Of a stretch of 64,000 bases of DNA, positions 97 to 17,749 are shown piece after piece. The position numbers and the translations under genes were made by a program. Positions within the stretch are counted from its first letter, which is position 1, and each line of letters starts with the position of its first letter. The stretch is taken from IMG/VR virus record IMGVR_UViG_3300027702_000001. One strand, 5' to 3'. Source of the stretch: a virus. The notes beneath the pieces were generated by a model that was given only the letters and a program-made list of their open reading frames with translations, ran no database searches and was not told where the DNA came from.

Positions 97-170
97 CGGG
101 TCAGGCAGGATTCGAACCTGCGACCGACTGCTTAGAAGGCAGTTGCACTAATCCACTGTGCTACTGACCC
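97..170 (-). tRNA. tRNA-Arg (anticodon TCT), CCA not encoded
   Basis: Acceptor GGGTCAG/CTGACCC, anticodon arm ACTGC-CTTCTAA-GCAGT, T-loop GGTTCGAATCC. Confidence 0.93.
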
Positions 171-1062: not shown

Positions 1063-1229
1063 TGATTCACTTCTTCGGGTGTTCCTATCATATCAAACTT
1101 TGTGATTCCGTGGTCCATTTTGAGGATACGCTCAATATGTCCCTTCACTTCCCAAGGAAACTTCGTCTCCGCTTCTACGAAAACTTCACCAACATCAGGG
1201 ATGTTTACTTTTTGCTTCCAGAGTTTCAT
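1059..1229 (-). CDS. hypothetical protein, 56 aa (MKLWKQKVNIPDVGEVFVEAETKFPW...)
   Basis: Manual translation; ATGA overlap with the talC stop. Confidence 0.6.
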   Translation of the reverse strand: MKLWKQKVNIPDVGEVFVEAETKFPWEVKGHIERILKMDHGITKFDMIGTPEEVNQ

Positions 1230-1894
1230 TCGTCAACGTGCAATTGTTCTTGTAGTTGTGCCCAGTCTTTTTCAAATCTTTCTAGACCATTGTCTGTCAA
1301 GATATGGTTGTACATTTTATTGAACACTTGATATGGCATAGTCACAATGTCTGCTCCTGCATCAAAACAACGTGCGACTTGGTGCACTTCGCGTACAGAT
1401 GCAGCAAGGATCTCTGTCTCTACATCGTGCATACGATAGACTCTAGAGATTGCTTGGACTAGTGATATACCTGAGAAAGAATTGTCATTCAGTCTGCCAA
1501 CAAAAGGAGACATCATAGATGCTCCTGCCTTTGCAGCGAGGATTGCTTGTGAGACTGAGAAGATTAGGGTTACGTTGGTACTGATACCATCGGAGGAGAG
1601 ATCACCACAGGCAATCAGTCCCTCCCTTGTACAGGGAAGTTTAACTGTGATGTTGGGGGCAATACTATAGTATTCATTTGCTGCTTCAAGCATTTCTTCT
1701 GCTGTATCGCCCATAACTTCTGCAGAGATTGAAGCATCCCAAGAAAAAAGATCACTGATTTCTTGGATCACGTCTCTAGGTTTCCTACCTGCCTTCAACA
1801 TAAGAGAAGGGTTAGTAGTTACACCATCAATGAGACCAGTTTCCATTGCGTGATGGATAAGTTCGGGGTCCGAACAATCTAGAAAGATTTTCAT
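1226..1894 (-). CDS. talC: transaldolase (TalC/FSA-type), auxiliary metabolic gene
   Basis: KIFLD, GVTTNPSL, catalytic ITVKLP, TNVTLIFS, SPFVGRL, LAASVR motifs. Confidence 0.96.
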   Translation of the reverse strand: MKIFLDCSDPELIHHAMETGLIDGVTTNPSLMLKAGRKPRDVIQEISDLFSWDASISAEVMGDTAEEMLEAANEYYSIAPNITVKLPCTREGLIACGDLSSDGISTNVTLIFSVSQAILAAKAGASMMSPFVGRLNDNSFSGISLVQAISRVYRMHDVETEILAASVREVHQVARCFDAGADIVTMPYQVFNKMYNHILTDNGLERFEKDWAQLQEQLHVDE

Positions 1895-1936: not shown

Positions 1937-1961
1937 AAAAAAACACCCTTGAAAAGGGTGT
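1937..1961 (-). terminator. intrinsic terminator closing the riboswitch micro-operon
   Basis: CACCCTT-TTC-AAGGGTG hairpin followed by a T-run on the minus strand. Confidence 0.75.
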
Positions 1962-1974
1962 GCGTTTCACGAAG

Positions 1975-2133
1975 TTATTTGACCGAAGTGTTTTGATTGA
2001 ATGACAAGTTTAACTTTACCCATTTGGCATAGTACACTCCCCGATAGCAAAGAAAGGCGAATACCTTTTCGGGGTTGTGCTTCTCCTCGTCATACTCTGG
2101 CAACCCATAATCTATTGAGATCTTGAGTCGCAC
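1975..2133 (-). CDS. 52-aa microprotein with YRGVxY motif (MRLKISIDYGLPEYDEEKHNPEKVFAFLCYRGVYYAKW...)
   Basis: Manual translation, GTG start 4 nt after the upstream stop; shares the YRG motif with the DUF4278-like peptide. Confidence 0.7.
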   Translation of the reverse strand: MRLKISIDYGLPEYDEEKHNPEKVFAFLCYRGVYYAKWVKLNLSFNQNTSVK

Positions 2134-2137
2134 GGTC

Positions 2138-2245
2138 CTAACCCCACTGGTGCAAGAATTTTACTTCTGCATAGATTAAGGTTAGGAACGTGGCAGACCC
2201 CAATGTTATGAGTCCCACCACCATTATCGGCGATGATAGATCCAT
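2138..2245 (-). CDS. 35-aa single-pass membrane microprotein (MDLSSPIMVVGLITLGSATFLTLIYAEVKFLHQWG)
   Basis: Manual translation; starts 1 nt after the upstream stop; about 20-aa hydrophobic stretch. Confidence 0.65.
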   Translation of the reverse strand: MDLSSPIMVVGLITLGSATFLTLIYAEVKFLHQWG

Positions 2246-2246
2246 C

Positions 2247-2390
2247 TTAACTCTTTGATGCGAACTTGCGTTCAACTTTGATGCCTCTGTACATCAACTC
2301 GTAGTTACGGTTTGATGATGCTTCGGCAAGTACCTTTGCTTTGTACTCTTTTGCGTTATACTTAACGCCTCTGTAAGTGATTAGTTCCAT
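2247..2390 (-). CDS. DUF4278-like peptide, 47 aa (MELITYRGVKYNAKEYKAKVLAEASSNRNYELMYRGIKVERKFASKS)
   Basis: Two YRG(V/I)K motifs; AGGAG SD; directly downstream of a Downstream-peptide-like aptamer, the known context of this family. Confidence 0.8.
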   Translation of the reverse strand: MELITYRGVKYNAKEYKAKVLAEASSNRNYELMYRGIKVERKFASKS

Positions 2391-2423
2391 TGAATTACTC
2401 CTAAAGTAGTTGGATTTTTAGGT

Positions 2424-2488
2424 CCGTTCCTTTAGTCGTTTGCGTCCCACGGACATTGAGGAGTTGCCTCCTTAATGGTTTGAACGAT
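2424..2488 (-). ncRNA. glutamine-II (Downstream-peptide)-like riboswitch aptamer, copy 2
   Basis: ATCGTTCA...GACGCAAACGACTAAAGGAACGG; P1 CGTTC/GAACG; P2 CATT-AGGAG-GCAA-CTCCT-AATG; family recognised from recalled consensus. Confidence 0.8.
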
Positions 2489-2602
2489 CTCAACCTTTAC
2501 CTGTTCAGATAATTGTTCGTGCTTAGCGACTCTACCTAACAGTACAGCAGCATCTACACAATGGAGATCTGAATACGCTAAAAGCATTAGATGCATTAAC
2601 AT
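2432..2602 (-). CDS. 56-aa microprotein ending ...EATPQCPWDAND, 3' end overlapping aptamer 2
   Basis: Manual translation, uninterrupted frame; TAA lies inside the aptamer core. Confidence 0.7.
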   Translation of the reverse strand: MLMHLMLLAYSDLHCVDAAVLLGRVAKHEQLSEQVKVEIVQTIKEATPQCPWDAND

Positions 2603-2632
2603 AATTTTGGTCCAAACATAGGGATGAACGCT

Positions 2633-2674
2633 CCGTTCCGCGACTTACTTGCGTCTCTTGCGAGATGAACGTAT
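2633..2674 (-). ncRNA. glutamine-II (Downstream-peptide)-like riboswitch aptamer, copy 1
   Basis: ATACGTTCATCTCGCAAGAGACGCAAGTAAGTCGCGGAACGG; P1 CGTTC/GAACG; P2 TCTC-GCAA-GAGA; begins a few nt after a -10 box. Confidence 0.8.
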
Positions 2675-2678
2675 GGAT

Positions 2679-2707
2679 ATGATAACATATCCTGTATTAT
2701 TTAGCAA
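2679..2707 (-). promoter_or_regulatory. sigma70-type promoter TTGCTA-17-TATCAT with extended -10 TG; overlaps a late-type CTAAATA
   Basis: Sequence TTGCTAAATAATACAGGATATGTTATCAT directly 5' of aptamer 1. Confidence 0.7.
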
Positions 2708-2758: not shown

Positions 2759-3388
2759 CTATGCCTTTATCTCGTTTAAGATCCCGCTTAAGTTGCCTGA
2801 GGAACTTAAGATGTAGTTTAAATTGATTATGCATCGATAGTCATTGTACTGCGGATTACTGCTCGCGTGAAAATTGTGACCATCAAAGATAACAAACCTT
2901 CCTTGACGTGGTTCGATCTTAGTTTTCATCGTCAGTTTTTTACGTGATCCATCATACGTTTCATTGAAGAAGAACGTAGGACCATCCGAGTCATTCACAT
3001 AATACAACAACGTCATATGTGGAAAATCATAATCCACGTGTGGTGTATGGTATAAATGCTTTGACTCTTTTCTAGTTAATAGATTAATTTTGATACGTCT
3101 GAACTTTTCAAAGTCTCCAAGTTCATCGGAAAAGTTTTCAGATATATGTTTCCACAAAGGTTCGACAACAATATCCCAAGCGTGTTGGGAAGAGATCTCT
3201 CCTTGATTGTTTACTACTGTGTGTTGAAACTGAGGATCCTCCCCCGACATTTCATCGGGGATAGAATCATTGAACTTAGGATCATACCCAGTTGTTTCAG
3301 TAATCATATACCAAGGCCAATAAGGACTATTCAATAGTCTTGCCTTGATGGGTTCCGACACAGAGGTCGGGACTTCACCAATAAACAT
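2759..3388 (-). CDS. 2OG-Fe(II) oxygenase family protein
   Basis: HVD...H iron triad (HTPHVD, FHASS) and terminal RxxIN motif. Confidence 0.85.
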   Translation of the reverse strand: MFIGEVPTSVSEPIKARLLNSPYWPWYMITETTGYDPKFNDSIPDEMSGEDPQFQHTVVNNQGEISSQHAWDIVVEPLWKHISENFSDELGDFEKFRRIKINLLTRKESKHLYHTPHVDYDFPHMTLLYYVNDSDGPTFFFNETYDGSRKKLTMKTKIEPRQGRFVIFDGHNFHASSNPQYNDYRCIINLNYILSSSGNLSGILNEIKA

Positions 3389-3390
3389 AA

Positions 3391-4584
3391 TTAAAGTTTG
3401 AATCCAGAGAATGTATCTTTTTTAATGTCTTGTTTGATTGCTCCTACAACATAGGATTCGATCTCAGTTTCCTGTGGTGCATTCTGTTGACCTTTAGAGT
3501 TCAACCAATGATTTGTCCAAGGAAGTGGATTGTTTCTAGCAGGAATATCGTAGATAGGATCGATACCGATTGCCTTCATCCTACGATTAGCAGTCCACTC
3601 AACATATTGTCCAAGAAGTTTAGCATTGAGTCCGATCATAGAACCATCTCTGAACAGATACTCTGCCCAATCCTTCTCTTCTTCTACACAACGTTGGAAC
3701 ATTTCCAAAACGTTCTGCTTTTCTTCTTTGATGATGTCGATCATATCAGGATCATCACCTTCCTTCCACTTGTTCAAAATATTCTGAGTAAGTACAAGGT
3801 GCTGTGACTCATCGCGTGCGATAAGTGAAATGATCTTAGCAGATCCTTCCATCTTTTTAAGTTCACCGAATCCAAAAGAGCAAGCGAATGAAACATAGAA
3901 GCGAATACCCTCAAGGATATTCACATTCATAACTGCTCGATAGAGTCTACGCTTGAGTTCTTTCTTCTCCCAGAATGCAGAAGGAGAATCTTTCCAGTCT
4001 TTCTTCCACCAATTACCTTGACCCCATTCCTGAGCGTAGTTGATAAACTCATCGTATGCTGAAGTAACACTTGAAGCACGTGCGATGATCTTCTCGTCAT
4101 CAAGAATAGTATCAAAAATCTCCTCAGGGTTTGCATAAACATTTTTGATAATGTATGTATAGGAACGACTATGGATCATCTCCATAAACTCCCAAGCGAT
4201 CATCGCAGACTCAAGTTCAGGTAGTGAGCAATATGGAATGAATGCCATCCCAGGACCACGACCTTGTACAGAGTCCAAGAGGATCTGGTACCGTAGATTG
4301 CTCGTAAAGATGTGCTTCTGTGCATCAGATAACTCTTGAAAGTCAGAGCGATCCTTCTGGAGAGATACCTCTTCGGGTCTCCAAAAGAATCCTAATTGTG
4401 AATTGGTTAGTCTATCAAAGACAGGATACTTAGCACCATCATACCTCTGGACCCCAAGAGGTTGTCCGAAGAACATTGGTTGCTTCTTTGTATCGTGTTT
4501 TGATTTATTAAATACTGTAATTTTGTCGATGCCTGTTTTCTGGTTGGGATCTCCGTCGGAGATTTTAAACTTTGCAACTGTCAC
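3391..4584 (-). CDS. nrdB: ribonucleotide reductase class Ia beta subunit
   Basis: FFWRPEEV, EMIHSRSY, ILEGIRFY, RDESQH di-iron motifs; C-terminal QETEIESY. Confidence 0.97.
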   Translation of the reverse strand: MTVAKFKISDGDPNQKTGIDKITVFNKSKHDTKKQPMFFGQPLGVQRYDGAKYPVFDRLTNSQLGFFWRPEEVSLQKDRSDFQELSDAQKHIFTSNLRYQILLDSVQGRGPGMAFIPYCSLPELESAMIAWEFMEMIHSRSYTYIIKNVYANPEEIFDTILDDEKIIARASSVTSAYDEFINYAQEWGQGNWWKKDWKDSPSAFWEKKELKRRLYRAVMNVNILEGIRFYVSFACSFGFGELKKMEGSAKIISLIARDESQHLVLTQNILNKWKEGDDPDMIDIIKEEKQNVLEMFQRCVEEEKDWAEYLFRDGSMIGLNAKLLGQYVEWTANRRMKAIGIDPIYDIPARNNPLPWTNHWLNSKGQQNAPQETEIESYVVGAIKQDIKKDTFSGFKL

Positions 4585-6868
4585 AGTCTTCCTCTGCCTC
4601 CAATAGTTCGTTTACTAGTTGATCTACGTTGTTTGTAATTTGTACTGTTGGTTCTTCCTCACCATCTTTCTTATTGTCATAAGTGTTCTGGTAGTAGGAT
4701 GTTTTCCAACCGTATTTGTATGTGTTCAATAGGTCCATTGCCATAACGGAAGAGGGTACTTCGTTATCGGGATAATTTCCTGGATTATAACTCCAGTTGC
4801 CACTGATTGCTTGGTCGAAGAACTTTTGCATCACAGCGACGATTTTAATATAACCTTCATTAGAAGGCATCTCCCATAGGAGAGTGTACTTATTTTTCAA
4901 GTACGGAAAACCTGGAACAATCTGCTTAAGAGGTCCCTTCTTTGATTTTTTAATGGACAGGTAGTCTCTAGGTGGTTCGATTCCATTGGTTGCATTTGAC
5001 ACAACGGAACTGCTCTCTGAAGGCATCTGTGCGGACAGAGTGCTGTGCCTGAGTCCGAACTGTTTGATAGATTCCCTAAGACTATTCCAATCATATTCGA
5101 GTTCTACGTTAGAGATTTCATCTACTTCACTCTTATATGTATCGATAGGAAGAATTCCATCGGCATACTTTGTGTGTTGGAAACCTTCACAAGCACCCTT
5201 CTCCATAGCGATAGCATTGGATGCCTTAAGTAGATTGAATTGGAACGACTCAGATAGTTTATGAACTAGATCCCAAGCACCTTGATCAGAATAATTATAA
5301 CCATTCTTAGCAAGGTAATGTGCTAGTCCAATGTAACCAACACCAAGTGATCTACGTGCAAGAGTAGAACGTTCTGCTGCCTTAACAGGATACTTCTGAT
5401 AGTCAATTAGTTCTTCAAGACCACGTACTGCAAGGTCACATAGTTCCTCCATCTCATTGAGGTTACGAAGTTTACCTACGTTGATAGCAGAGAGGATGCA
5501 CAATGCAATCTCACCACCATCATCATCAATGTGAGAGATAGGATCTGTAGGAAGAGTGATCTCCTGACAGAGGTTACTCATATTCACCTTATCCTTAAAG
5601 GAAGAGTGAGAGTTACAGTGATCGATATTCATAATGTAAATACGACCTGTCTCTGCTCTCTCTTTCAATAGGGAGAGGACAATTTGCGATGCATCAACGG
5701 TGCGTCTAGCAATTTTTTCGTCCTGTTCGTACTTCTCATAGAGAGCATCGAAATCATCAGTCCCAAAAGCATCATATAGACCAGGGACATCGTGAGGACT
5801 GAATAAAGAGATCGTTTCATTCTGAATGAATCTTTCATAGAACAGTTTACTGATCTGAATACTATAGTCAAGTTTTCTTACACGGTTATCTTCGGTACCC
5901 TTGTTGTTTTTAAGAACAAGAATATCTTCTATTTCTTGGTGCCAGATAGGAAAGTGAACTGTAGCAGAACCACCTCTGATACCGTTTTGCGTGCAGCAAC
6001 GTACAGTTGATTCAAACTTTTTGAGGAAGGGGACCACACCTGTGTGTTGTACCTCTCCACCTCTGATTTTAGAGTTGATGCCACGGATTCTACCTGCGTT
6101 GATGCCGATTCCAGCACGTTGTGCGACGTATTTACCAATAGCCATATCACTGCTAAAGATACCATCGAGGGTGTCATCAACATCAACGAGAACACAAGAT
6201 GCAAATTGACGAAGTGTTGTCCGAACTCCCGCGAGCACTGGCGTTGGGAGGTTGATTTTTCCTTTGGAGGTTGCTGTGTAGTAGCGTTGTACATACTCTA
6301 GTCGAGAATTTTTTGGGTAGTCTTGAAAGAGTGTTGCCGCAACCATAATGTACATATACTGGGGTGTCTCATAAAGAACTCCAGTGCTTCTATCCTGTAC
6401 CAGATACTTATCTACGATTTGTCTCAACCCTGCAAAGGTGAAACCCATACAGCGTTCGTGATCAATATAACTATTCAGACAATCCCACTCTATAGGACTA
6501 TACTTATTTAGGATACTACCATCATATACTCCTGCGTCTACACAGCGTTGTACGTGGTCTTGGAGGTGTGGGTAACCAATCTCGTCTGCCCACTCTGGAA
6601 AGACCTGCTTGCGTACGTTAAACAGAAGGAGACGTGCTGCTACATATTGATAATTTGGAGCGTCTAAATCGATTAGATCGCTTGCTGAGCGAATAAGAAT
6701 ATCTTGGATTTCTGATGTCTTGATGCCATCAAAGAACTGTAGGTTGGCATTCATCTCAACTTGTGATTCACTTACACCAGTGAGACCATCACACGCTAAC
6801 TCAACCATCTTATGTACCTTGTCAAGGTTGAGAGGGACGGCGGTACCGTCTCTTTTAATTACGTTCAT
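4565..6868 (-). CDS. nrdA: ribonucleotide reductase class Ia alpha subunit
   Basis: N-terminal ATP-cone (VIKRDG), QFASC, SNLCQEI, TSYY; start set at MNVIKRDG (track start 6880). Confidence 0.97.
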   Translation of the reverse strand: MNVIKRDGTAVPLNLDKVHKMVELACDGLTGVSESQVEMNANLQFFDGIKTSEIQDILIRSASDLIDLDAPNYQYVAARLLLFNVRKQVFPEWADEIGYPHLQDHVQRCVDAGVYDGSILNKYSPIEWDCLNSYIDHERCMGFTFAGLRQIVDKYLVQDRSTGVLYETPQYMYIMVAATLFQDYPKNSRLEYVQRYYTATSKGKINLPTPVLAGVRTTLRQFASCVLVDVDDTLDGIFSSDMAIGKYVAQRAGIGINAGRIRGINSKIRGGEVQHTGVVPFLKKFESTVRCCTQNGIRGGSATVHFPIWHQEIEDILVLKNNKGTEDNRVRKLDYSIQISKLFYERFIQNETISLFSPHDVPGLYDAFGTDDFDALYEKYEQDEKIARRTVDASQIVLSLLKERAETGRIYIMNIDHCNSHSSFKDKVNMSNLCQEITLPTDPISHIDDDGGEIALCILSAINVGKLRNLNEMEELCDLAVRGLEELIDYQKYPVKAAERSTLARRSLGVGYIGLAHYLAKNGYNYSDQGAWDLVHKLSESFQFNLLKASNAIAMEKGACEGFQHTKYADGILPIDTYKSEVDEISNVELEYDWNSLRESIKQFGLRHSTLSAQMPSESSSVVSNATNGIEPPRDYLSIKKSKKGPLKQIVPGFPYLKNKYTLLWEMPSNEGYIKIVAVMQKFFDQAISGNWSYNPGNYPDNEVPSSVMAMDLLNTYKYGWKTSYYQNTYDNKKDGEEEPTVQITNNVDQLVNELLEAEEDCDSCKV

Positions 6869-7863
6869 ACTTTCTTCCATTGAGATAATTTTAATTTTGC
6901 TTGTAATCCTTGATAGGTATTTGATTCTACCAGGGTTTGTACGTTGTGTCCAGCAAGAACCATATCATTAAGATCCTTTTGTTGAATGCCTGACGGGAAG
7001 ATTACTACTTTGTAACCTCTGTCGATGGTGCTTGAGATCCTGTCGGTGATTTGTTTGTTACGTGGTTCGTTATCAAAAACATAAACACAATCGCTCCAAC
7101 CAAGCGACCTAGGATCAAGATCGGACCCACACATAGCAGCACCGTTTTCCAAGAAGAGGGAATCAAACGGTCCTTCCACGAGGTAGACTGGTTTTTTTGG
7201 ATCAAGTCTGTCTTGTCCAAAGACCTTTGGTTTGTTTTCATTATAAAGAATGGTTATATAACGGAGTCTGGAATTTGGCATTAGGGATCTACCCTGTACA
7301 CCAAACCATTGTCCGTCTTTATCAATTAACGGAATGATGATACGGGGTCTATCATTCTGGAGATTGTCAAATGTATGCTTCTGCGAGTTGATGTACTCTT
7401 TGAACTTATCTGCATAGTAGATGAGGTCGAGTTTCGACCCTGTAATGCCTCTTTGTTCAAGGTACTTTCTTGCGGGATGTTCATTATTTAGACTAGAAAT
7501 ATTTGGAAGGTTAGTCCCTGTTTTAAATACTGGTTTTGCTTTGAAGACATCTGGATTTGGATTGGCAACCCGTGTTCTTTTGCCTGTCAATCCATCCTTA
7601 TATCGTTCTAAAACATACTCTTCGTATATGTCTCTTGCTTGTTCTTTTAAGAAGTTGCCAAGAGTTCTCCCTACCCCACAGTTATGACACTTAAAGATAA
7701 TGTCATTCTGTTTGGTAAAGAAATACCCTCTCGCTTTAGATGCCTGCTTCTGGGAGTCTCCACAGTAAGGGCACCTAAAATTATAGAGGGTTGATTTCTT
7801 TTCTTTGAACTTATCAAGTCTTGACCCGACAATACGGGCGTACTTGATGTCAATGAAACTCAT
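6865..7863 (-). CDS. gp61: DNA primase (T4 gp61-like)
   Basis: Zn finger CPYCGD...CHNC, TOPRIM VEGPFDS and DNEPRN, KDLNDM. Confidence 0.95.
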   Translation of the reverse strand: MSFIDIKYARIVGSRLDKFKEKKSTLYNFRCPYCGDSQKQASKARGYFFTKQNDIIFKCHNCGVGRTLGNFLKEQARDIYEEYVLERYKDGLTGKRTRVANPNPDVFKAKPVFKTGTNLPNISSLNNEHPARKYLEQRGITGSKLDLIYYADKFKEYINSQKHTFDNLQNDRPRIIIPLIDKDGQWFGVQGRSLMPNSRLRYITILYNENKPKVFGQDRLDPKKPVYLVEGPFDSLFLENGAAMCGSDLDPRSLGWSDCVYVFDNEPRNKQITDRISSTIDRGYKVVIFPSGIQQKDLNDMVLAGHNVQTLVESNTYQGLQAKLKLSQWKKV

Positions 7864-17528: not shown

Positions 17529-17551
17529 AGACCTGATTATGTGTGGTGTGT

Positions 17552-17740
17552 GAGGGAGGTTGGATTACTGTGTACCAACAAAAGATGGGCATTACTACAG
17601 AGTAAATACATCTTTGCCTAAGACCCGATTGGTAAATCGATTCTACTTTCGTAGCAGCACCACCTGTGTCTTATCACCTTAACCAGCAATATGCCAGTAA
17701 GTTTATTCAGTCACTCCCAGTAAAAGAAGCGTCCCTCTCT
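17552..17740 (-). ncRNA. manA-like structured RNA motif in the 5' leader
   Basis: GGGAGTGACTGAATAAACTTACTGGC...AGGTGGTGCTGC...GTAGTAATGCCC...CCAACCTCCC with at least 7 nested helices; name from recalled consensus. Confidence 0.72.
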
Positions 17741-17749
17741 TACAAATAT

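Follow-up and report, generated by a model that had tools for sequence, protein, structure and literature searches.

A glutamine-aptamer leader and four small genes

The DNA analysed here (the window) is a stretch of 64,000 nucleotides (nt) from the IMG/VR virus record IMGVR_UViG_3300027702_000001 and is DNA of a T4-like cyanophage. Between positions 1937 and 2707, its minus strand runs from a promoter through a glutamine-aptamer RNA and four conserved small genes to a terminator, and this is a real, self-contained unit, as an earlier interpretation made without database searches (the sequence-only reading) had proposed. Our subject is the leader RNA of this micro-operon, which is probably an interlocked double glutamine aptamer with two type-I-like cores, one shared P3 helix and an enclosed gene. 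The parts of the unit are given below, with open reading frames (ORFs) measured in amino acids (aa); G001 is a genome 95% identical to the window that was used as a close-relative reference (L131).

2679-2707, minus strand: sigma-70-type promoter TTGCTA-17-TATCAT with a TG extension (extended -10)
2675-2692, minus strand: palindrome GGATATG-TTAT-CATATCC around the -10 box, scored as a hairpin on the plus strand
2630-2674, minus strand: aptamer 1 (unit 1), from a custom covariance model and sub-threshold Rfam matches
2596-2619, minus strand: seven-codon upstream ORF (uORF; MFGPKLC), opened by the conserved start codon of the family and overlapping the 56-aa ORF at its ATG
2432-2602, minus strand: 56-aa gene (phrog_504, T4-like gene cluster 430) with two invariant Cys, nested in the proposed sensor
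2247-2390, minus strand: gene for a 47-aa DUF4278-like (IF17-like) protein with two YRG motifs
2138-2245, minus strand: gene for a 35-aa peptide that crosses the membrane once and has a conserved LIY(G/A)E motif; homologues in 20 loci
1975-2133, minus strand: gene for a 52-aa protein with one YRG motif and a GTG start (phrog_6192, T4-like gene cluster 432); homologues in 17 loci
1937-1961, minus strand: intrinsic terminator with an 8-bp stem (1961-1943), a 3-nt loop and a T run; 0 substitutions relative to G001

The four ORFs were confirmed with the lengths first assigned to them, and they are real small genes. They are not newly discovered: the sequence-only reading had described them as hidden, but three belong to phrog_504, phrog_5049 and phrog_6192, the small ORFs of relatives are annotated as hypothetical or DUF4278 (T4-like gene clusters 430, 660 and 432), and each of the four proteins recurs in 17-67 other phage loci. 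Relative to G001, 0 substitutions fall in 100 nt of RNA elements and 6-8% of positions differ in the ORF bodies; over the four ORFs, substitutions are distributed among codon positions 1/2/3 as 12/2/19.

The 56-aa protein matches phrog_504 (E = 1e-18). Codon-position entropies of 1.50/1.00/1.68, together with Cys residues that are invariant in 91/91 sequences with synonymous variation, mark its ORF as a genuinely coding gene. An AlphaFold2 model of the protein has three helices, with a predicted local distance difference test score of 84. The protein has no Pfam or NCBIfam family; the best hit of a PDB sequence search has E = 0.55, Foldseek against the PDB gave no match better than E = 5, and an Atlas search yielded unnamed viral clusters only.

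Two putative sensor units in the leader

At gathering thresholds, Rfam gives no match in 1937-2707. In a permissive search, unit 1 (2630-2674) scored 24.9 bits with Glutamine (RF01739; threshold 35) and 24.7 bits with Glutamine-II (RF01704; threshold 33), so that a check with the glnA and Downstream-peptide models, as suggested earlier, returns weak matches but none at threshold. A local version of unit 2 scored 15.9 bits with RF01739, and sub-threshold Rfam matches were found at the same syntenic site in 5/5 relatives. By contrast, a covariance model built from 72 distinct compact aptamers of other phages, with the window left out, recovers aptamer 1 at 58.4 bits (E = 8e-15). Aptamer 1, originally placed at 2674-2633, is thereby borne out at 2674-2630, and a glutamine-riboswitch-like leader with two sensor cores is supported. 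Its assignment to the Downstream-peptide (glutamine-II) class is not supported: neither unit reaches the RF01704 threshold, and the fold is nearer to a type-I three-way junction.

The elements of the leader are listed next, with roles for the nested (interlocked) arrangement that we favour and, where it differs, for two aptamers in series. Base roles in the linker were assigned from the structure paper PMC6698751.

2666-2671, minus strand: CGUUCA of unit 1, the 5' strand of the outer-core P1 (nested) or P1 of aptamer 1 (series); invariant in 72/72
2654-2665, minus strand: hairpin UCUC-GCAA-GAGA, P2 of the outer core and P1a of aptamer 1
2646-2653, minus strand: linker CGCAAGUA, with C17-G18-C19 of the ligand site and the type-I E-loop half AAGUA
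2641-2645, minus strand: AGUCG, 5' strand of the shared P3
2633-2639, minus strand: GGAACGG of unit 1, a 3'-type P1 strand
2621-2630, minus strand: box CGUUCAUCCC, 5' half of the second core, contributing a P1 strand, A6 and, as 5' strand of the ORF-closing helix, UCCC
2481-2486, minus strand: local CGUUCA within the ORF, lineage-specific; 5' end of the aptamer 2 first proposed
2445-2448, minus strand: GGGA, which pairs with UCCC 2624-2621 as the 3' strand of the ORF-closing helix
2439-2444, minus strand: CGCAAA, inner-core linker C17-G18-C19 and also ORF codons D-A-N; 0 substitutions relative to G001
2434-2438, minus strand: CGACU, 3' strand of the shared P3, with the stop codon starting at U2434
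2424-2433, minus strand: AAAG-GAACG-G, the type-I 'GAAG' junction, the outer P1 3' strand and G41
2398-2406, minus strand: CUUUAG-GAG, which pairs with CUAAAG 2435-2430 and overlaps the Shine-Dalgarno (SD) sequence GGAG (2401-2398) of the DUF4278 gene

Across 72 sequences, all six modelled pairs of the hairpin after CGUUCA change on both sides (96.7% paired; 0/500 shuffles as high). GGAACGG and the box at 2630-2626 form a hairpin across the 3-nt loop G-A-G (2633-2631) unforced in folding. The CGUUC and GAACG P1 strands, which carry the ligand-contacting C1, C39 and G40, are present and invariant in both copies, with no covariation since they never vary. In L063 and L105, A6 changes to G together with C17 to U (CGUUCG ... 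UUGCAAG), that is, from A.C to G.U; the A6 and C17 bases are coplanar beside the ligand site in the solved type-II structure (PMC6698751).

The second unit is split around the nested gene

A second CGUUCAUCC box (2630-2621) lies two bases 3' of aptamer 1, is invariant in 11/11 phages fetched by BLAST, has 0 substitutions relative to G001 and, in relatives, leads straight into the ATG of the ORF. This box continues as a compact local aptamer without an ORF in 16 loci and is followed by the ORF in 91. The 3' half of the unit (GGGACGCAAACGACUAAAGGAACGG, 2448-2424), which includes the last codons and stop of the ORF, hardly varies among more than 100 phage variants and is conserved even in L097, where the ORF ends before it.

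The helix that joins the two halves and closes the ORF is paired in 90/90 units, with a mean of 5.9 consecutive pairs (0/2000 shuffles as high) and a pairing of 0.83 in register as against at most 0.58 when slid. Positions 1-4 are always paired, several pair types occur at positions 3-5, and changes are matched on the two strands (UCCCAUG/CAUGGGA, UCUAUG/CAUAGA, UCCUC/GAGGA and UCUUAU/AUAAGA). Because the encoded residue at this site switches among W, I, E and V, selection appears to act on the RNA and not on the protein. The D-A codons over the inner-core linker have an entropy of about 0.09 at all three codon positions; that is, synonymous sites are frozen. The conserved partner of the 3' half is therefore the box at 2630-2621, which places the 56-aa gene inside an aptamer helix.

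Most relatives would have the AUG of the nested gene within the closing helix, a place that in the window would be taken by the seven-codon uORF. Compared with 10 other phages, the window has an extra T and a further insert of about 25 nt between box and ORF, both common to G001. As a result, the family start codon (2619) opens the uORF, which overlaps the ATG at 2602 and is presumably translated, and the closing helix is reduced to UCCC/GGGA. The gene-in-aptamer design recurs with another ORF family: in 29/29 loci whose first unit has no local 5' half, an upstream box and ATG open a different ORF of 61-75 aa (consensus LLLALTLAHH...W.MSCE...KV.G.C), which ends at the 3' half of the first unit and whose closing helix covaries (L007, L015, L023, L048 and 25 other loci).

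Two cores that probably share one helix

The linkers are complementary across the two units, AAGUA-AGUCG in unit 1 facing CGACU-AAAG in unit 2. The resulting P3 (AGUCG:CGACU) has 5/5 pairs in 69/69 distinct alpha-type units, and its variants are either compensatory (AGUCA:UGACU, four units) or of two wobble types (GGUCG:CGACU, four; AGUCG:CGGCU, one). The solved structures have a pair between linker position 19 and the position 41 that follows GAACG (PMC6698751). Here, position 19 of unit 1 and position 41 of unit 2 are paired in 108/108 cases (C:G in 101, G:C in 7), and in the window 19:41 is C:G in both cores. Covariation is seen in both P2 helices, in P3 and in the two cross-unit 19:41 pairs, alongside the conservation of the elements and the coding signature of the nested gene. 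The two-step gate of independent serial aptamers that the sequence-only reading proposed does not agree with this cross-unit covariation, which points to interlocked units with one shared helix.

Beta-type linkers (AGCCGACU in both units) form a trans duplex with 5-7 of 8 pairs and an end pair that is U:A, G:C or A:U; haplotypes that break their local mini-hairpins retain the trans pairing, and the observed value is reached in 14/5000 shuffles. A type-I three-way junction with P3 between the AAGUA and GAAG strands exists only across units, from AAGUA and AGUCG of unit 1 with CGACU and AAAG of unit 2. In compact alpha-type relatives, single units score 24-34 bits with RF01739, and single matches that span both units pass its threshold (L061, 97 nt, 40.3 bits; L042, 88 nt, 39.6 bits). 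Published Rfam glnA matches in the cyanophages S-CREM1, P-TIM68, ACG-2014f, S-PM2 and S-ShM2 are 92-235 nt long, compared with a model of 53 positions (PMC9964418, Table S7), and the 235-nt S-ShM2 match contains the whole gene cluster 430 ORF. For the window RNA, folding energies are -72.8 kcal/mol nested, -70.4 in series and -67.5 with a local second aptamer, and the ligand-free minimum free energy (MFE) is -77.2. The nucleotides C1, G2, G18, C19, C39, G40, G41 and G35, which are reported to contact glutamine or build the ligand site (PMC6698751), are kept in both cores in more than 100 variants. We prefer the nested topology because of P3, the beta-type trans duplex, the 19:41 covariation, the spanning RF01739 matches, the published lengths and the fold energies.

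In this topology the outer core would have P1 formed by CGUUC 2671-2667 and GAACG 2429-2425, P2 by the hairpin at 2665-2654 and CGCAAGUA as junction, in a type-I-like three-way junction. The shared P3 would pair AGUCG 2645-2641 with CGACU 2438-2434, with AAAG as the outer junction. The inner core would lie at the opposite end of P3 with its strand order permuted: P1 would pair GAACG 2638-2634 with CGUUC 2630-2626 across a 3-nt loop, P2 would pair UCCC 2624-2621 with GGGA 2448-2445, closing around the uORF and the whole 56-aa gene, and CGCAAA would form the junction. By homology to host aptamers, each core would bind L-glutamine; a glutamine aptamer made of two RNA pieces binds its ligand (PMC6698751).

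Proposed control of the DUF4278-like gene

An RNAalifold consensus of 89 sequences, taken over the region between the 3' half and the DUF4278 start codon, contains one helix, CU(A/G)AAG, which includes the stop codon, paired with CUU(U/C)AG abutting the SD. Its key pair is A-U in 35 sequences, G-C in 27 and G-U in 23, and never A-C (Fisher, 9e-5). The helix is present as CUAAAG:CUUUAG in the MFE structure of the window, and it competes with P3 (C2435, U2434), the AAAG junction and G35. A local hairpin, CCUAAA/UUUAGG, was rejected as a conserved SD-sequestering element, being lost in UGA-type relatives, while CURAAG:CUUYAG is kept. A second copy of CCUAAA (2417-2422) can pair with the SD region (2400-2405); it is common in UAA-type relatives and is not retained in UGA-type ones.

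In cyanobacteria, both types of glutamine riboswitch switch DUF4278/IF17 genes on, and relief of a duplex between aptamer and ribosome-binding site (RBS) has been proposed as the means of control (Klahn 2018, PMC6212724). By homology, we infer glutamine-ON control of the 47-aa gene: the folded RNA would withdraw CUAAAG (2435-2430, stop codon included) from CUUUAG beside the SD, and high glutamine would lead to translation of the IF17-like DUF4278 gene and probably of the coupled downstream peptides too. To reach the end of the nested ORF, a ribosome would have to open the inner P2, then P3 and the outer P1; by this geometry, translation of the ORF and folding of the sensor would exclude each other, and that this exclusion is used for regulation is a conjecture. 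A bolder and tentative proposal, which we rate as possible but doubtful, is that ribosome traffic through the nested gene repeatedly erases and resets the interlocked two-core sensor, so that glutamine would decide between the nested two-Cys protein and an IF17-like glutamine synthetase inhibitor.

Weighing the alternatives

A leader with two aptamers in series would have a compact, local aptamer 1 (2671-2633) and an aptamer 2 split into 2630-2621 and 2448-2424, with pairing within each unit, the ORF in the P1a loop and linkers that are unpaired or merely touch each other. This arrangement gives each unit a full CGUUCA...CGC...GGAACGG core in normal order, and it shares the ORF-closing helix with the nested one; Rfam models align to single units, and beta-type second units with a local mini-hairpin AG-UUCG-CU pass the RF01739 threshold alone (L025, 40.3 bits; L090, 37.1 bits). 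We nevertheless consider it unlikely, given that it would place G.G and C.C at the conserved 19:41 position in both units of the seven G:C variants, would leave the AGUCR:YGACU covariation and the trans-compensating beta-type haplotypes unexplained, and would deprive alpha-type single units of half the type-I junction (AAGUA is confined to unit 1 and RAAG to unit 2); its fold of the window RNA is also 2.4 kcal/mol less stable than the nested one. The sequence-only reading had instead drawn aptamer 2 as a 65-nt element (2488-2424) in the 3' end of the ORF, formed by CGUUCA 2486-2481 and a GCAA-capped stem, and acting as a second, sequential DUF4278 switch. Its 3' half (2448-2424) stands, and its local CGUUCA is unchanged in G001 although the rest of the ORF body has 12 substitutions there. 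One change in the inner hairpin of G001 is compensating, and the covariance model matches 2489-2421 (24.5 bits, E = 6e-5). The match, however, skips the whole P1a, the stem beside the junction has an AA/GA mismatch, the CGUUC is missing from 89/90 related variants (the window is the remaining one) while the 3' half is nearly invariant, and the fold is the least stable of the three. We therefore rejected this self-contained element as the conserved form and regard it as a sequential switch with very little probability; the local CGUUCA may be at most a lineage-specific decoy. Beside it in the ORF lies the hairpin AGGAG-GCAA-CUCCU (2456-2473), which in G001 lacks its top pair and has an additional one at the bottom (A/C to C-G); this hairpin may be a lineage-specific structure.

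Several observations count against the interlocked double aptamer itself. P1 strands never vary, so the choice of P1 partner is indirect, by way of 19:41, P3 and the motif halves. Independent events are few, since the seven G:C cases probably come from one clade and the AGUCA:UGACU cases from one or two. Most loci were collected with a pattern that fixes the GGAACGG-AK-CGUUCAUC junction, which makes its invariance partly a matter of construction; the same junction is also found in 10 loci fetched by BLAST. The ORF-closing helix of the window is only 4 bp long, and the AUG of the nested gene itself (2602) lies 19 nt inside the loop. Neither the single units of the window nor its 248-nt outer core scored above Rfam thresholds in a banded search, which cannot score a 248-nt span with RF01739 and likewise did not recover the published 235-nt S-ShM2 match. 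RNAfold pairs the SD with CCUAAA 2422-2417 in the aptamer-folded states, so thermodynamics alone does not predict SD release, and glutamine sensing by the phage copies is a prediction from homology. A relic that has diverged to a ligand-independent role (in mRNA stability, processing or translational coupling of the small ORFs) would account for window matches that all fall below Rfam thresholds and for a direction of SD control that is not evident from folding energies. Such a relic is improbable in our judgement, as it would have kept all glutamine-site nucleotides in both cores across more than 100 variants, frozen synonymous sites where the cores overlap the ORF, and the DUF4278 association known from hosts, whose riboswitches of either type are functional in vivo.

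Promoter and terminator

The promoter TTGCTA-17-TATCAT is present at 2707-2679 as first described, is promoter-like and places the predicted transcription start near 2672, the first base of the sensor. The layout, in the form TTGACT-17-TATAAT ending about 7 nt before CGTTCA, is shared by most of 88 related loci. The arms of the palindrome vary among phages yet remain complementary (for example, GGTCTATAATAGACC and GTGTTATTATTAACAC). This inverted repeat has the -10 box at its centre and stops right at the sensor. It might act in RNA, as a hairpin of read-through transcripts, or at the level of the DNA.

In 53/88 related loci (L001-L130), the -35 element is directly preceded by a canonical NtcA box, GTA-N8-TAC, about 50-60 nt upstream of the sensor. 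No such box occurs within 150 nt upstream of the sensor in the window, where the sole match, at 2859, is inside the 2-oxoglutarate (2OG) oxygenase gene, and G001 likewise has no NtcA box at this promoter. An NtcA-dependent promoter in the window was rejected for lack of a GTA-N8-TAC box upstream of the -10 element; the lineage of the window and G001 may have lost the NtcA input. The terminator, too, is where it was first placed (1961-1937), with its stem at 1961-1943 followed by the T run. A weak RT-8 match over the terminator and snoRNA matches in the permissive Rfam search were dismissed as chance.

Downstream proteins and gene neighbourhood

The 47-aa protein matches phrog_5049 (E = 1e-20) and reaches 24.1 bits (E = 4.8e-5) with Pfam PF14105, just under the cut-off of 25.3, and RefSeq gives the name DUF4278 to syntenic homologues in P-TIM40 and S-SSM5. 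We treat it, on this similarity, as DUF4278-like, in line with its first description. It has no PDB relative by sequence. Inhibition of glutamine synthetase by IF17 depends on a C-terminal region, and short picocyanobacterial homologues are noted to lack it (Klahn 2018, PMC6212724); the phage protein is only 47 aa long. The 35-aa peptide has no PHROG or Pfam family. The 52-aa protein matches phrog_6192 (E = 7e-24), and its resemblance to the DUF4278-like family is a local, YRG-centred profile match only (66% probability over 18 columns).

The genes that flank the micro-operon are as follows.

4565-6880, minus strand: nrdA
3391-4584, minus strand: nrdB
2759-3388, minus strand: 2OG-Fe(II) oxygenase gene, directly upstream of the micro-operon
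1226-1894, minus strand: talC, downstream of the micro-operon

The placement of the operon between nrdB and talC is right on the talC side, but nrdB does not directly adjoin it: the 2OG-Fe(II) oxygenase gene intervenes, with nrdB and nrdA farther upstream. In a synteny survey, the order nrdB ... ORF of about 54 aa, 47-aa ORF, small ORFs, talC recurs in many cyanomyoviruses. The proposed link to nucleotide and carbon metabolism, whose sole basis was this neighbourhood, is unsupported. Elsewhere in the window are a tRNA gene (97-170, minus strand, 73 bits) and a full-length manA RNA (RF01745, 179 bits; 17549-17742, minus strand), a known cyanophage cis-regulatory motif that in P-TIM40 lies directly between the DUF4278 gene and talC (L004, 2019-2213).

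Comparison with known glutamine riboswitches

Riboswitch aptamers are normally compact and non-coding, and doubled ones lie side by side. Cyanophage glnA RNAs, tandem glnA RNAs and the link to DUF4278 have already been published (PMC2864571; PMC6212724; PMC9964418), and our literature search found no published description of a gene inside an aptamer or of interlocked cores. With the type-I glutamine riboswitch (RF01739, leader of Synechocystis gifB/IF17; structure from Ren et al. 2015, following the summary in PMC6698751), the phage leader has in common P1 CGUUC/GAACG, the adjacent hairpin, the C-G-N linker, the 19:41 pair, the AAGUA and GAAG junction strands, the P3 helix and a downstream DUF4278/IF17 gene. 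The host type-I riboswitch exerts glutamine-ON translational control through relief of RBS pairing (Klahn 2018, PMC6212724). Unlike type I, the phage leader would have two cores on one P3, a permuted inner core, a helix around a translated 56-aa gene and an outer P1 spanning about 248 nt; its 19:41 pair is C:G, as in type II, and its single units, at 25 bits, fall short of the threshold of 35.

The type-II riboswitch (Downstream-peptide, RF01704) known from marine Synechococcus and Prochlorococcus (Ames & Breaker 2011, through later citation; structure in PMC6698751) shares with it the picocyanobacterial setting, a CGUUCA...CGCA...CGAC...GGAACGG core, C19:G41, a helix flanking GAACG whose 3' strand abuts the start region, and a short DUF4278 protein downstream; the known type-II aptamer works when split into two RNA pieces (PMC6698751). 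The phage RNA differs in having no evident H-type pseudoknot with a tight P2 whose loop holds GGAACGG (24.7 bits against a threshold of 33) and in a GAACG-flanking helix that includes G35 and the stop codon of the upstream gene, with a 24-nt loop. Tandem glnA RNAs were noted by Weinberg 2010 (PMC2864571). Like tandem glnA and glycine riboswitches, the phage leader would have two cores for the same ligand, which would allow a sharper response; the known tandems are complete aptamers side by side, whereas the phage cores would be interlocked through shared or crossed helices around coding sequence. The matches of PMC9964418 belong to the same element family in T4-like cyanophages, and their lengths fit a nested outer core; that study reports a 'glnA cis-regulatory RNA' only, with neither double core nor enclosed gene, and the copy in the window is missed at Rfam thresholds.

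A scan of 185,579 cellular genomes for the 17-nt junction gave at least 120 matches. Nearly all of the matches listed are chance occurrences in unrelated genes; the genuine ones, L140, L211 and L226, are short or cyanophage-like contigs binned into metagenome-assembled genomes. L211 (binned as Synechococcus sp., 193,981 nt) and L226 resemble cyanomyovirus DNA, with phoH, ssb, an exonuclease, td and about 80% identity to ACG-2014h and S-RSM4. Among the matches listed no host chromosomal copy of the junction was seen, by which its absence from hosts is not shown.

If the leader is indeed an interlocked double aptamer, helix-sharing cores around a coding gene would represent a new coupling of metabolite sensing with translation. 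They would also account for the failure of standard scans for RNA families to detect these elements, or to give them their right size, in hundreds of cyanophages. We hypothesize that abundant marine phages read the nitrogen status of their hosts through glutamine and respond with IF17-like proteins.

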